DNA of 64,000 nt. Source: an uncultured Candidatus Saccharibacteria bacterium. GTDB taxonomy: Bacteria > Patescibacteriota > Minisyncoccia > Phycocordibacterales > UBA2100. The position numbers and the translations under genes were made by a program. Positions within the stretch are counted from its first letter, which is position 1. The number at the start of each line of letters is the position of its first letter. This document shows, piece by piece, positions 1 to 7,065 of this stretch. The notes under the pieces were generated by a model. That model did not search any database. It saw only the letters and a list, made by a program, of their open reading frames with translations, and had not been told where the DNA came from. The DNA is taken from contig CAYSUJ010000004.1 in the NCBI GenBank assembly GCA_964434285.1, positions 18,732 to 82,731 on the forward strand, in the 5' to 3' direction.

Positions 1-1125
1 GCCGCGCACAGCGCGTGCTTTGCGATAATACGCATCCGCGTAGCCAGAAGAGAGCACGAATGTTCCAACCAAAATGCGGCGACGAACCTCGGGACCAAAC
101 CCTGCACCCCGAGTCTTCGCATACACACCGCCAATATCCTCAGCGGGCAGCGAGAGTCCATAGCGAATACCATCGTAGCGCGCGAGGTTCGTGGAGACTT
201 CTGCCGGGTTCACTATGTAGTAGACCGCGAGCGCGTGTGCAAGCGTTGGAAGTGTAATGTCACGAATCTCATACCCCGCCTCCCGCAGTTTTGAGAGTGT
301 TTGTTCAAACGCGGTCAAAACTTCTGGATCCACACCCTTTTCAAGCACCGAGCGTGGAACGCCGATGACTTTTTTGAGAGGTCGTCTAGGATACATATCT
401 TCTCCGACCGAGGTGCTGTCGCGCTCATCGCGTCCACGGATCGCTTTAAAGAGTGCCTGCGCATCGGCGACCGTTTTACCCATTGATCCGATTTGATCGA
501 GTGAAGATGCGGCGGCCATGAGGCCGTAGCGAGAAACGGAGCCATACGTCGTCTTGAGTCCGGCGATACCGCAGAATGAGGCTGGCTGGCGAATCGAACC
601 TCCAGTGTCGGAACCCAGTGCTGCGAGAGCGAGACCCCCCGCAACGGCAGCGGCAGAGCCTCCCGAGGTCCCCCCGGGCACACGCGATACATCCAGCGGG
701 TTTTTACTCGGTCCGAACGCAGAGTTCTCCGTGGAGCCGCCAAGGGCGAACTCATCCATATTGGTGCGCCCGAGGAAAACGGCACCCTCCCCTTTCAGCT
801 TCTCTATAACAGTTGCATCGTAGGATGCGCGGTAGTGTTCGAGCATTTTTGATGCTGAGCTCGCAATGCGGCCCTCGATGAGAATGTTGTCTTTGACGGC
901 GAGAGGAATCCCCGTGAAAGTAGAAGCCTCACCCCGCGCGATACGTTCGTCCGCTGCGCGTGCTTCAACGCGCGCAGCATCTTCCCACACTTCAAGATAT
1001 GCATGTATTTCTGTGTCCTTCGACGTAATCGCTTCGAGGTAGGCATTCGTCAGTTCAAGCGCAGAAAACTCTTTCGCATCGAGTGCGCGTCGTGCTTCCG
1101 CAATGCTGAGGCGTGAAATGTCCAT
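1..1125 (-). CDS. gatA: Glu-tRNA(Gln)/Asp-tRNA(Asn) amidotransferase subunit A, 3'-truncated by the window edge
   Basis: My translation of the reverse complement from the ATG at 1123-1125 gives MDISRLSIAEARRALDAKEF...GGSSGG...QPASFCGIAGLKTTYG, the amidase signature. There is no stop before position 1. The gene is not in the ORF track because it runs off the window. Confidence 0.85.
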   Translation of the reverse strand, partial: MDISRLSIAEARRALDAKEFSALELTNAYLEAITSKDTEIHAYLEVWEDAARVEARAADERIARGEASTFTGIPLAVKDNILIEGRIASSASKMLEHYRASYDATVIEKLKGEGAVFLGRTNMDEFALGGSTENSAFGPSKNPLDVSRVPGGTSGGSAAAVAGGLALAALGSDTGGSIRQPASFCGIAGLKTTYGSVSRYGLMAAASSLDQIGSMGKTVADAQALFKAIRGRDERDSTSVGEDMYPRRPLKKVIGVPRSVLEKGVDPEVLTAFEQTLSKLREAGYEIRDITLPTLAHALAVYYIVNPAEVSTNLARYDGIRYGLSLPAEDIGGVYAKTRGAGFGPEVRRRILVGTFVLSSGYADAYYRKARAVRG

Positions 1126-1126
1126 A

Positions 1127-1414
1127 CTATTTGTGGAGCACCTTCTTAACGAGAAGATAGCCGTCTTCCGTAGCCGGTGCTGCGTCAAGTAACGTCTTTG
1201 TATAGAGGCCTGATTCGTGGGGGTTTTCGTCATTACGCATCACATTACGCACCGGAGGAGTCTCGGGCGTCACTTCACCCGCAACCGACTGAATCGTCTC
1301 CACAAAAGCAAGAATGGCGGGAATTTCCTTCTCAAGCTGCTGGAGCTCTTCGGGAGAAACTTCAAGCCGCGCCAACTTCGCAAGAGCGACAACGTCAATT
1401 TGTGTCTGTGTCAT
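1127..1414 (-). CDS. gatC: aspartyl/glutamyl-tRNA amidotransferase subunit C
   Basis: The 95-aa ORF ends ...GYLLVKKVLHK, which resembles GatC, and lies directly upstream of gatA. Its ATG overlaps the reverse transcriptase stop in an ATGA arrangement. Confidence 0.8.
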   Translation of the reverse strand: MTQTQIDVVALAKLARLEVSPEELQQLEKEIPAILAFVETIQSVAGEVTPETPPVRNVMRNDENPHESGLYTKTLLDAAPATEDGYLLVKKVLHK

Positions 1415-2418
1415 TGGAGCATCCTAACAGATTCTCCCTGCGGTAGCATCTGTCGAAGTTTATATGCATTTCCGTGGCTCAAAAGTCCTCGATATGACTG
1501 TACGGTGGGATCGTCATGTTCTCGCCCGGCACACTGTTTCAACATTCGCCGCTTCGTCGTCGTGCGCAGCACGCGATAATCAGGAAAATGTACCCATCCA
1601 AGGAAATCGATACCGGACGCGAGCGTGCGGATTGAAATTTTGTTCGGATTCAGTTCGAGCTTGAGACGATCGCGTAGGAAATCTCGCATATTCGCGAATA
1701 TGCACACCAACGCCCTTCGATCACGCGAGAGAATAACGAAGTCATCAGCATAACGGATGTAGTATTTCGCTTTGAGTGCGTGCTTCACAAATTGATCAAA
1801 CTCGTTCATGTAGATGTTCACGAGGAGTTGTGAGGCAAGGTTCCCAAGCGGCAATCCCTTTCCCCGTGCTCCTGAATTGAAACTTACAATGACGCGTCTT
1901 ATGAGATCGACAATCCGCACATCTTCAATTCGATGCGTAAGAATGTTCGAAAGTATTGCCTGGTCAATACTCGCGAAAAACTTCCAAACGTCGCATTTGA
2001 GAACCCAACAGGTGCGCGTATGGTTGCGGGAGACTTTGTACGCACACGCGCGAAATCGATTCACCGCTCGATGTGTCCCCTTTCCTTTCCGGCATGAGTA
2101 CGAATCTGCAATGAACGTACGGTCAAAGAATGGATAGAGTTTGCGATACAGCGCATGATGTAGCAGTCGGTCGCGTACGGTGGCTTTGTGAATGTTCCTC
2201 GGTTTTGGATCAGAAATATTAAATGCGTGGTACGGACCATGCACATACGTGCACGCTACAAGATCACGATGCAGTGCAGGAATGTTCTCCATCAATCGAT
2301 ACTGAAACTCCTGCACATCCCTCTTTTTACGCTTCCCGCGTACGAATTCTTTCCACGCTTGCAGCAGGTTCTCGATGGAGATGATATCCTCGTAGGTATG
2401 GGTGAAAACAATGACCAC
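1411..2418 (-). CDS. DGR reverse transcriptase. The listed ORF runs to 2754, but its N-terminal ~110 aa look like non-coding antisense sequence, and the likely start is the GTG at about 2418.
   Basis: Motifs present: YIRYADDFVIL (YADD), LPLGNLASQLLVNIYMNEFD (the GNLxSQ motif typical of DGR reverse transcriptases) and SYSCRKGKGTHRA. An AGGGGG ribosome-binding site sits ahead of the in-frame GTG. Confidence 0.8.
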   Translation of the reverse strand: MVIVFTHTYEDIISIENLLQAWKEFVRGKRKKRDVQEFQYRLMENIPALHRDLVACTYVHGPYHAFNISDPKPRNIHKATVRDRLLHHALYRKLYPFFDRTFIADSYSCRKGKGTHRAVNRFRACAYKVSRNHTRTCWVLKCDVWKFFASIDQAILSNILTHRIEDVRIVDLIRRVIVSFNSGARGKGLPLGNLASQLLVNIYMNEFDQFVKHALKAKYYIRYADDFVILSRDRRALVCIFANMRDFLRDRLKLELNPNKISIRTLASGIDFLGWVHFPDYRVLRTTTKRRMLKQCAGREHDDPTVQSYRGLLSHGNAYKLRQMLPQGESVRMLQ

Positions 2419-2443
2419 ACATTGAAGTCTGCCCCCTGATTTT

Positions 2444-2803
2444 TTGCAACCGAAGCTTGTGCCTGTCGTATCCAAACTCAAGGATGCATATCTCATTTGG
2501 CAAAGATTTTTGCCGCATGTTGATAAGGCGCGACGGCAGACACTAGCACAACGTATAGATTCAGAATTGCTCGAAACGCTTGAACATTCGTTTCGTGCAG
2601 GATATGTGCGGGATGAACGAAAAATCTCTGCTCTTGAAACAGCGATCGGACGACTCGACCTCGCTAAATTTTTCCTTCTCATTGCATGGGAGATGTCGAT
2701 GCTCACCGACGCACAGTACCGGCATATTTCAGAACATCTTATTGAAGCGAGCAAAATGCTTTCCGGATGGAAGAGCTACATGGAAAAGAAAACTCTCCCG
2801 TGA
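2444..2803 (+). CDS. Avd-like (accessory variability determinant / four-helix-bundle, IVS-like) protein candidate
   Basis: 119-aa helical ORF. The segment ...ISALETAIGRLDLAKFFLLIAWEMSMLTDAQYRHISEHLIEASKMLSGWK resembles the C-terminal helices of Bordetella phage Avd (...LGSWI). There is no in-frame ATG near the start, so it would begin at TTG or GTG. It lies on the strand opposite the TR and the reverse transcriptase. Confidence 0.4.
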   Translation: MQPKLVPVVSKLKDAYLIWQRFLPHVDKARRQTLAQRIDSELLETLEHSFRAGYVRDERKISALETAIGRLDLAKFFLLIAWEMSMLTDAQYRHISEHLIEASKMLSGWKSYMEKKTLP

Positions 2804-2816
2804 GGGAGAGAAAGGT

Positions 2817-2929
2817 GAGTTGCGGAGGAGGAGCCGATTGTCGGCGTTCCACCGATTGTCGTTGTCGAGCCTGTTGACGTAGGCGTTCCACCTGCGGTCG
2901 TTCCGATTGAAGTTGAGAACCGAGACGCT
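2817..2929 (-). repeat. DGR template repeat (TR)
   Basis: 113 bp. Read on the minus strand it encodes VLNFNRNDRRWNAYVNRLDNDNRWNADNRLLLRNS, with ten AAC/AAT codons. Its adenines are the positions that differ from the VR. Confidence 0.8.
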
Positions 2930-3160
2930 ATGTACTCTGTGCCATCCGTGCCACCGCCTTTTGAATACTCTCAAGGTTGAATCTGATGCGAAGTCGTTAA
3001 CTCCCTAATGCAGAGCACCAACTCTCTTCTTTTTTGAAGAAGTGCGAACCTCGCCATCTCAAGCCTAAAAAGAAAGACCGTAGATGCCAGCGTGTTCAAC
3101 ATAACGATACCCCGCATCTCCACTCAAGGAAATGCGGGGTACAGGACAAGTAACAAAGGG

Positions 3161-3861
3161 TCAGAGGGTCACAGTGTCCGAGTTACGGAGGAGGAGCCGA
3201 GCGTCGGCGTCCCACCGACGGTCGCGGCCGAGCCTGCCGACGTAGGCGCTCCACCCGCGGTCGCCCCGAACGAAGCCGAGAACCGAGACGCTGCCATTCA
3301 CATCCTCAACGAATGCGAAGTTGGCATAGCCGTCAGTACGCAAGCCGACTTCTTCACCCGATTCCTACCGCTCGACGAGCGCTTCGGCTTCCGAGAGTGC
3401 GAGCGTGAGCCCGCGCCCCCGCAGTCGTGCAACAATCTCATCGTCAGCTGTACCGGGCACAGCCTGTACGGCCGCGAGCGCCATCTCCCGGAAGGTCGTG
3501 CTTCCGGATTCTGGAGCTGGTAGATCCCGACCGATTCGGTCGCGTTCGCGGTCTGCTGAGCGAGAAGCCAGCGATCGATGTCGGGATGGCGATATCCCCA
3601 AAGCGTGCCAGTGAAGCAATCCCGGGTTTTCTTGGGCTTTGCGCCGGTGAAGATCGCCTTTTTGTGGAAGACGAGAGTCGGACGCATTCGCTTTTCAGCG
3701 GACACCGAAAGTGCCTCTCGCAACGCTGTGGCCAGGGCTTTTCCATTGTTCGCCCAATGCAGGGCGACGTCAGGCTCGATATCGCGCGGCAACGCCTTTA
3801 TTACGGCGCCGGCGAATTCGGAAAACTGCCCAACGGACAAGGCTGTTCCATGTTTAGACAT
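3161..3861 (-). pseudogene. DGR target (variable) protein gene, apparently frame-disrupted
   Basis: From the ATG at 3861 (ribosome-binding site GAAAGGAA), a well-behaved frame reads MSKHGTALSVGQFSEFAGAVIKALPRD... but decays after about aa 110. A second frame becomes protein-like (...REMALAAVQAVPGTADDEIVARLRGRGLTLALSEAEALVER) and is separated by one in-frame TAG at 3365-3367 from the VR-containing C-terminal frame, which ends at 3161. Confidence 0.5.
3180..3292 (-). repeat. DGR variable repeat (VR)
   Basis: Aligns to the TR with 19 mismatches in 113 bp. Eighteen of these are at TR-adenine positions (minus strand) and one is a synonymous C/T. It encodes VLGFVRGDRGWSAYVGRLGRDRRWDADARLLLRNS. Confidence 0.8.
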
Positions 3862-3924
3862 GGCTGTTCCTTTCAAGGTTCACTTCCCAGCCTGATGCCG
3901 GAGAAGGGCACTATTATATAACGT

Positions 3925-5940
<2,016 letters not shown>

Positions 5941-5968
5941 TTATCGCACGGAGGCTGCCTACACCACC

Positions 5969-6445
5969 CTAGTAGGAGAGTTCGACGGAGCGCTGGAGAG
6001 CCCGGTTCGACACATCAATTTCGGAGCAGGCCGTCGAAAAACCATCGGCCTCAATGACTGTAGATCCATTAATCGTGTCTTTTTCAACAGCCACACGTGC
6101 ACATAAACCATTTGGCTCATACTCAAAGGACATGGTATAGACGGGTTGCCCTGGCGGCGGCGTTGCTGGCGTGATTGAAAGTGCGTCGCCATCACACGTC
6201 GGAGTCCCCCCTGGCGAGGTCGAGCTAAAGTACCCAAAACGCATATCCCAGTACAGCGCACATTCCGCTGCAGAATCGGCAACATAAAACGCGTACTGTG
6301 AACTACGCCCGAGCGACGAGAGAATAATCTGTTTTTGAGCAATGGAGAATACTGATATACCAAGCGCGAGCACGAGGGATGCAACGAGTGCAGCGAGCAG
6401 AATGGTAAATCCGCGGTTACTCTGTTCCCGTAGAGAATGGCTCAT
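5969..6445 (-). CDS. pseudopilin-like protein (N-terminal hydrophobic pilin-type helix)
   Basis: N-terminus NRGFTILLAALVASLVLALGISVF. Overlaps the next pilin-like gene by 4 bp. Confidence 0.45.
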   Translation of the reverse strand: MSHSLREQSNRGFTILLAALVASLVLALGISVFSIAQKQIILSSLGRSSQYAFYVADSAAECALYWDMRFGYFSSTSPGGTPTCDGDALSITPATPPPGQPVYTMSFEYEPNGLCARVAVEKDTINGSTVIEADGFSTACSEIDVSNRALQRSVELSY

Positions 6446-7065
6446 ACATTGTCATCGACCCATCGATAGAGATTTTCATAAATCGTGATTGTCCGTGGCT
6501 GCGACGTTCCTGCGTCCCACGAAATTGTAACCTCGATACGAATTTCATCTTGCGTGCCAGGAACGTAGGCAACATTCACGGTGCGACGATATGGCGAGTC
6601 ATCCCACCCGGCTTCATATCCGTACAATTCGCCATTTGTCTGGAGTAGCGGACACTGACCCGAGCACGTGGTAATCACGTTATTCCGAGTATCGATAACA
6701 AATGGTGTGCCAATCGGAATCCCGCACAGCAGTGTAACGGGAGAGCAACTTGCGTCCGGACTACTGAGCGATATGCGCAGAACATTACCATCACGAATCG
6801 CCCGAACCGTCTCTATTGCTTCTTGTGCTAGATTAAATGCGATTACCTGATCGCGCGCATAGTATGACGCAGAGAGTGATTGCATGGTGAGCGACATAGG
6901 CGCCACAATGGCAACAGTCAGAATAACGATGGCAACCATTGTCTCGATGAGGGTCATTCCATGAGTAGCTTTCAGCTGTGGGCTGCCAGCTTTCAGGAAA
7001 TATAAAAAGAAACCCCTGATCGCATCCTGGAAGGTGGAAGCTGGACACTGGGAGCTATTTTTCAT
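6442..7065 (-). CDS. type IV pilin-like / pseudopilin
   Basis: Prepilin motif G|MTLIETMVAIVILTVAIV. Confidence 0.55.
   Translation of the reverse strand: MKNSSQCPASTFQDAIRGFFLYFLKAGSPQLKATHGMTLIETMVAIVILTVAIVAPMSLTMQSLSASYYARDQVIAFNLAQEAIETVRAIRDGNVLRISLSSPDASCSPVTLLCGIPIGTPFVIDTRNNVITTCSGQCPLLQTNGELYGYEAGWDDSPYRRTVNVAYVPGTQDEIRIEVTISWDAGTSQPRTITIYENLYRWVDDNV

Follow-up and report, generated by a model that had tools for sequence, protein, structure and literature searches.

A Patescibacterial diversity-generating retroelement with a disrupted adjacent target gene and a conserved structured RNA 5′ of its template repeat

The DNA analysed here is a 64-kb stretch of contig CAYSUJ010000004.1 (positions 18,732 to 82,731) from an uncultured Candidatus Saccharibacteria bacterium, and is referred to as the window. 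It contains, between the genes ligA and gatC, a diversity-generating retroelement (DGR) with a template repeat (TR), a variable repeat (VR), a reverse transcriptase (RT), and an accessory variability determinant gene (avd). An earlier note on this DNA, made from the sequence alone, had described the element as a complete DGR in which a protein undergoes targeted hypervariation. The explanation that we consider likely to be correct is that the window carries a chromosomal DGR of architecture B3, belonging to the Patescibacteria (candidate phyla radiation, CPR), in which the machinery is complete and the adjacent target gene is inactive, carrying a nonsense codon and a 1-nt deletion. The RT, Avd, TR, and a structured RNA domain are all present and look intact, and the element either ceased to function recently or continues to rewrite a dead gene. 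It is a genuine DGR, typical of the well-described Patescibacterial B3 group and not novel as a kind; the most interesting lead is the family-specific structured RNA located 5′ of TR.

The retroelement and its repeats

The RT of the window contains the Pfam domain RVT_1 (E = 3.5e-25) and the motifs YIRYADDF and LPLGNLASQLL, and a 335-aa RT gene is likewise called in an independent assembly, L002. The closest solved structure is 8ub7_A (E = 4.8e-47 over residues 10–308), which matches brt of Bordetella phage BPP-1 at each of the 110 residues compared (100% identity), whereas the structures of group II intron and 'retron-type' RTs reach only ~1e-20 (best, 1.3e-20). From end to end, the window RT shares 67% identity with the RTs of two relatives (L004 and L005), LGNLASQ and YADD being conserved among them, and its phage matches include known DGR phages. 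By sequence comparison, the RT is grouped with the prototype DGR RT and not with those of group II introns or retrons, in agreement with the earlier note, which had assigned it to the DGR type from its YADD and GNLxSQ motifs.

TR and VR (Table 1) constitute the sole direct-repeat family found in positions 1–7000 of the window, and are 83% identical without a gap, with the similarity ending sharply at both borders. On the minus strand, 18 of the 19 mismatches are located at TR adenines (14 A>G, 3 A>C, and 1 A>T), and the remaining one is a synonymous C>T change (CGC/CGT) six nt from the 3′ end. Given 28 adenines in the 113-nt TR, the hypergeometric probability that adenines would account for at least 18 of the 19 mismatches is 6.7e-13. 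The repeat search and re-alignment thus bear out the positions and length of the two repeats, the number of differences, and the adenine specificity given in the earlier note. The adenine mismatches assign 2817–2929 as TR and 3180–3292 as VR, and the template RNA therefore has the sense of the minus strand.

In the frame of the target, TR contains ten Asn codons (seven AAC and three AAT), nine of which are replaced in VR by G, V, G, S, G, R, R, D, and A, while the tenth falls in the invariant 3′ end. Two further amino-acid changes in VR derive from AGG>GGG (R>G) and GAC>GGC (D>G). The count of ten Asn codons in the earlier note was correct, but not its statement that all were replaced; its list had taken the D>G change as one from Asn, and had missed R>G. 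The adenine-specific pattern of VR is a record of past homing. Since only one of the 85 non-adenine positions differs between TR and VR (84 are identical), homing last took place, or the target was inactivated, only recently. Among the adenine substitutions in the VRs of 59 related loci, 59% are A>G (589 G, 219 T, and 182 C), and the proportion in the window (14 of 18) is therefore typical of the family. This bias towards G may come from the misincorporation spectrum of the RT or from selection, AAC>GGC giving Gly.

Homing in DGRs starts at the 3′ end of VR, named the initiation of mutagenic homing (IMH) site, and the IMH of the Bordetella phage DGR has a GC-rich inverted repeat downstream. 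In the window, the 3′ end of the repeats is rich in G/C (GGCTCCTCCTCCG) and contains the single TR/VR mismatch 6 nt from the end; a mismatch is found at nearly the same place in L004, which is consistent with an IMH/IMH* difference. A long hairpin (3107–3142) follows the target gene. It is nearly identical in the closest relatives, L005 and L009, and most loci have a comparable hairpin 40–75 nt after VR, usually accompanied by a T-run. This hairpin is probably the terminator of the target gene, and could at the same time correspond to the GC-rich inverted repeat that follows the IMH of the Bordetella phage.

The avd gene, which was not listed in the earlier note, is encoded on the strand opposite to the rest of the cassette. 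Its open reading frame (ORF) matches the NCBIfam model NF033474 (DivGenRetAVD; E = 4e-12; 46 bits, under the 80-bit cut-off) and the Pfam model bAvd (PF22296; E = 3.4e-6, under its cut-off), and has a full-length tblastn match at the same reversed position in all 62 related loci. These 62 loci consist of 59 relatives, the window, and its two duplicate assemblies, in each of which an adenine-biased TR/VR pair is detectable upstream of RT.

The order of the cassette in the window, target (VR), TR, avd on the reverse strand, and RT, is that of architecture B3, described as TR-(avd)-RT with a reverse-strand avd and accounting for 90% of the CPR DGR set (Wu et al., Nucleic Acids Res 2018, PMC5758913). 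The B3 order was seen with the same spacing in 62 of 62 related loci. In a scan of one genome per GTDB species, at least 593 loci encode relatives of the window RT; the best 80 of them are 61–76% identical, and nearly all are labelled Patescibacteria, including Kaiserbacteria, Adlerbacteria, and Paceibacterota. CPR/Patescibacteria are known to be enriched in DGRs (Wu et al. 2018, PMC5758913; Roux et al. 2021, PMC8144416), and a DGR clade restricted to Patescibacteria has been described, with targets lacking recognisable domains and an activity lower than average (Roux et al., Nat Commun 2021, PMC8144416). The rarity implied in the earlier note, which had pointed to an otherwise minimal genome, does not hold, B3 being the published norm in this lineage. 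Two relatives (L004 and L005) carry the cassette in unrelated gene contexts, which indicates that the ~2.5-kb cassette moves as a unit.

The disrupted target gene

Three-frame translation of the region upstream of VR revealed that the upstream ORF (3861–3298) differs in frame from the AAY codons (AAC or AAT) of the repeat and stops before VR, and that the frame containing VR remains open over no more than 67 codons in the window. The corresponding frame in 56 related loci is open for a median of 229 codons, and for no fewer than 101. Two lesions have been identified in the window gene. One is a 1-nt deletion at ~3499–3502, where the DNA reads CCG GAA GCA CGA CC as against the expected CCG GAA GGC ACG ACC; the other is an in-frame TAG (CAG-to-TAG) at 3365–3367, where the homologues have the Gln of VERQESGE. 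In the alignment, the frame switch occurs within LQNPE/(S)GSTTFREMA (the slash marking the switch), which the homologues read as LQNPxGTTFREMA. When the two frames are joined, the reconstructed target has 44 homologues, mostly of 226–236 aa, the best covering 100% of its length. Conversely, tblastn with intact homologues gives a match that changes frame at 3499 and continues through the TAG at 3365–3367. VR aligns to the C-terminal 38 residues of this ~233-aa family, with the stop codon 17 nt past VR.

Two Logan assemblies from different sequencing runs (L001 and L002) are 100% identical to the window over 8.9 and 4.0 kb, respectively, and both lesions are identical across the three assemblies, as is the consensus VR. 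Exact matches to a 25-mer of the VR flank or to a 34-mer of TR were not found among the Joint Genome Institute (JGI) metagenome contigs. Because the neighbouring ligA, gatC, gatA, and RT genes are intact beside the broken target, the assembly is not generally error-prone. We conclude that the dominant genotype carries a target pseudogene. Both lesions are located upstream of VR, and a full-length diversified protein therefore cannot be made. The DGR is accordingly not 'complete' as claimed in the earlier note, VR being outside any intact gene, and the hypervariation of a protein that the note deduced is not supported for this genome, the frameshift and the stop recurring in two further assemblies. 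No second TR-like repeat, VR, or copy of the target was detected in the 64-kb window, either by sensitive blastn with TR or by tblastn with four homologues.

A Pfam search found no domain in any piece of the target. For P0001, the intact homologue closest to the target (62% identical), AlphaFold gave a confident model (predicted local distance difference test score, 89.6; predicted template modelling score, 0.73) that consists of three N-terminal helices and an α/β domain from around residue 60, with VR placed on the last strands.

Intact homologues of the target, 45–62% identical, are present as orphan genes in three other loci (L003, 1202–1903; L007 and L008, 5001–5699), and no RT, avd, TR, or RNA-domain match was found within their fetched flanks. 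These orphans mirror the window, in which intact machinery stands beside a dead target. One other short VR-bearing frame (101 codons), the sole one among the 56 relatives, is found in L062, where the detectable repeat spans 52 nt (2625–2676); this may be a second decaying target.

The RNA domain 5′ of the template repeat

The ~170 nt upstream of TR are non-coding and strongly conserved among 60 loci. Directly 5′ of TR, they form a structured domain with three helices: P1 (3018–3007/2943–2932), a closing helix of 12 pairs that ends 3 nt before TR, and two hairpins, P2 (3003–3000/2994–2991) and P3 (2977–2973/2960–2956). In an alignment of 59 loci, 95.7% of the cells of this three-helix structure are paired, as compared with 71.6% after shuffling and at most 52% when the partners are slid, and 355 cells show double changes as compared with 109 after shuffling; none of 500 shuffles reached the observed values. 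Compensatory changes are found in 19 of the 21 pairs.

A covariance model of the domain gave a single match in the 64-kb window (3056–2920; 104.9 bits; E = 1e-20). Altogether 72 matches were obtained, one per cassette and all on the RT strand upstream of TR, in cassettes drawn from the loci L004–L089 (one site each) and the window; 13 of these loci were outside the seed. The model did not match the loci that hold only a homologue of the target. The RNA domain is thus specific to these Patescibacterial DGR cassettes. Rfam 15 returned no family at E ≤ 1 in 1300–4000, and none at the gathering score in the whole 64-kb window (tRNA, rRNA, riboswitch, or other known RNA). No description of a CPR RNA element was found in the searchable literature, which left out the principal paper on CPR DGRs (Paul et al. 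2017, Nat Microbiol).

A further putative helix, P0, would connect the two sides of TR. The segment 5′ of P1 (~3027–3022) is complementary to the linker 3′ of TR (~2814–2809), and the complementarity co-changes across loci, as in AAAUGAAGA/UCUUCAUUU, AAAUAAAAA/UUUUUAUUU, and UCUGUUGCUA/UGGCAACGGA. The mean energy of the matched segments is −6.14 kcal/mol as against −4.20 ± 0.24 kcal/mol for segments permuted between loci, and none of 300 permutations was as low. On the 3′ side of TR, a terminator-like hairpin (2814–2793) starts 3 nt after TR. Of 60 related loci, 53 have a GC-rich hairpin with a T-run at this place; the stem sequences differ, and six stem pairs show compensatory changes. On the other strand, the window hairpin overlaps the C-terminal Lys codons of avd, with the avd stop codon in its loop. 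RNAalifold, when run on the concatenated MAFFT alignment alone, recovered neither the long-range helix nor the terminator, and separate tests were run for both. With a terminator-like hairpin after TR, the TR RNA would be a short transcript by itself, and RT would need a promoter of its own; a promoter scan gave nothing above the shuffled expectation.

Judged from this anatomy, the template RNA would be a discrete minus-strand non-coding RNA of ~300 nt, consisting of the ~110-nt three-helix domain, the 113-nt TR, and a short linker, and would end at the intrinsic-terminator-like hairpin after TR. The linker 3′ of TR would pair back to the segment 5′ of the RNA domain, and the recognition domain of the template RNA would be situated 5′ of TR. 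By analogy with BPP-1, the RT-Avd complex may bind the structured RNA and copy TR into cDNA with misincorporation opposite the template adenines, and the cDNA would then be exchanged for VR, located at the 3′ end of the target gene, as far as the G/C-rich 3′ terminus of the repeat. Altogether, the RNA of the Patescibacterial B3 DGRs may be arranged opposite to the Bordetella phage paradigm, with the structured domain (presumably recruiting RT-Avd and serving in priming) 5′ of TR, a long-range helix clamping the TR ends, and a short, separately terminated transcript in place of a joint avd-TR-RT message; we regard the chances for and against this arrangement as evenly balanced.

Alternative readings, genomic setting and known systems

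In weighing the origin of the locus, it may be asked whether it is a DGR at all, or a group II intron, retron, or defence RT lying by chance beside a diverged direct repeat. The NCBIfam search of the RT points in the latter direction, as it returned no DGR-RT family and gave the group II intron RT/maturase model TIGR04416 as the top-scoring one. The score of 142.9 bits is, however, far under the 300-bit cut-off (the retron model scores 56.6 bits, with a cut-off of 235), Brt is matched with an E value 26 orders of magnitude lower than any group II or retron RT structure, and no group II intron or retron RNA was detected with Rfam (E ≤ 1 in 1300–4000; gathering score in 64 kb). With the adenine specificity (P ~7e-13), the presence of Avd, and the conservation of the whole cassette in 62 loci, the non-DGR explanation is effectively refuted. 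It is also very unlikely that the DGR is fully functional, with the target protein being made and hypervaried, and the lesions being assembly errors, minority alleles, or recoding. The intactness of all the machinery would be in keeping with such activity, as would the identity of TR and VR at nearly all non-adenine positions, which is expected of a recently active element. Nevertheless, the window and the two Logan assemblies of separate runs share, in identical form, two independent lesions that differ in kind, the intact neighbours ligA, gatC, gatA, and RT argue against a generally error-prone assembly, the ~233-aa ORF of the relatives is uninterrupted and has Gln in place of TAG, and synthesis of the protein would require a frameshift and a stop read-through together. 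Rescue of the target by UGA/TAG recoding or programmed frameshifting was considered separately and rejected; the stop codon is TAG, no connection exists between the two lesions, and the ORF of the relatives is a plain one.

The machinery could otherwise be retained for a remote intact target with its own VR, the adjacent target being merely a decayed copy. Several targets, or targets away from the cassette, have been documented for some DGRs (Wu et al. 2018, PMC5758913), RT, Avd, TR, and the RNA domain are without decay, and paralogous or orphan homologues of the target occur without an adjacent DGR in related genomes (L003, L007, and L008). We consider this explanation unlikely, as neither a second TR-like repeat nor a target homologue is found in the 64-kb window, and the adjacent target is nearly always intact in the 56 relatives, indicating that it is the normal substrate. 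Several points nonetheless weigh against a DGR with complete machinery and an inactivated target. A remote intact target beyond the searched 64 kb would make the element functional, and a minority of the cells may carry an intact target, or VR may vary below the consensus level. Both matches to the Avd models fall below the curated cut-offs. The P0 helix of the window comprises just 5–6 pairs (AGAGAG/CUUUCU) and overlaps the terminator stem by ~2 nt, and we infer the transcription units, the RNA ends, the priming site, and the binding of Avd to the 5′ domain.

Taken as a DGR with complete machinery beside an inactivated target, the locus is a clear example in which the only visible target of intact machinery is a pseudogene, and calls for caution in surveys that equate an RT and an adenine-biased TR/VR pair with active hypervariation. 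The complete RNA module beside a dead target could mean that RNA, RT, and Avd persist, or even keep homing, without selection on the target.

Table 1. Positions of the elements of the retroelement in the window
Feature	Position	Strand	Remarks
RT	1411..2418	−	335 aa; GTG start at 2418; apparently intact
avd	2459..2803	+	114 aa; alternative TTG start at 2444 (119 aa)
Terminator-like hairpin	2783..2814	−	Stem CTCTCCC/GGGAGAG, loop TCAC, then TTTTCTTTTC; from terminator scan
TR	2817..2929	−	113 nt; 28 adenines; ten AAY codons in the target frame
Structured non-coding RNA domain	2920..3056	−	Directly 5′ of TR; P1, P2, P3, and putative P0
Long hairpin	3107..3142	−	15 pairs, 8 of them G-C; starts 18 nt past the target stop codon and 38 nt past VR
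VR	3180..3292	−	113 nt; differs from TR at 18 adenine positions and at one C/T near the 3′ end
Target gene, disrupted (pseudogene)	3161..3861	−	Residues 1–121, 3861–3499; residues 122–233 in another frame, 3499–3164

The cassette is flanked by ligA (3925–5931, minus strand) and gatC (1127–1414, minus strand), as the earlier note had stated in placing it between ligA and gatCA, and its setting is chromosomal. The stop codon of RT overlaps the start codon of gatC (ATGA, 1411–1414), and the DGR RT appears to be joined to the gatCA operon in this genome. Adjoining ligA on its other side, the region 5969–7065 (minus strand) contains small ORFs with pseudopilin-like hydrophobic N-termini, such as GFTILLAALVASLVLALG and GMTLIETMVAIVILTVAIV. 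According to the gene list of L001, the contig with these ORFs also encodes a protein with an N_methyl domain and a prepilin peptidase (A24), which suggests a type IV pilus or pseudopilus gene cluster.

Among known systems, the window element resembles most closely the B3 DGRs of CPR bacteria (PMC5758913; clade 2 of Roux et al., PMC8144416), with which it shares the host lineage, the position of VR at the C-terminus of the target, and the AAY codons in TR; as in those DGRs, the target is small, without a recognisable Pfam domain or a transmembrane segment. Unlike in these relatives, the target gene of the window is disrupted. Treponema denticola TvpA and other DGR targets with the C-type-lectin fold are also listed among the closest known systems.

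The prototype, the BPP-1 DGR (mtd-avd-TR-brt), has a homologous RT (E = 4.8e-47; ~300 residues) with the shared motifs [I/L]GxxxSQ and YxDD, and is further similar in having an Avd homologue, the adenine signature of TR and VR, a G/C-rich 3′ repeat end with a mismatch, and a hairpin downstream of VR. It differs in the orientation of avd, which in BPP-1 is on the same strand and upstream of TR and in the window is reversed, and in the location of the structured RNA, which in BPP-1 lies 3′ of TR, in the spacer between TR and brt, and in the window 5′ of TR. The spacer RNA of BPP-1 binds Avd and is needed for processive cDNA synthesis (Handa et al. 2018). As a positive control, the Rfam family RF03022 (Phage_DGR) matches BPP-1 between TR and brt with 104.7 bits; the same family has no match in 1300–4000 of the window at E ≤ 1, or in the whole window at the gathering score, and the covariance model of the window family does not match the BPP-1 cassette. 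Relative to TR, the structured RNA common to at least 72 Patescibacterial cassettes is thus located opposite to the spacer RNA, the only DGR RNA characterised so far. Should the Patescibacterial RNA prove to be the recognition element of RT-Avd, the architecture of the DGR RNA would not be conserved, and the domain would provide a handle for reconstituting a CPR DGR. Also unlike BPP-1, the window has a terminator-like hairpin after TR, and its element is placed in the chromosome of a bacterium, whereas that of BPP-1 belongs to a phage tail-fibre module.

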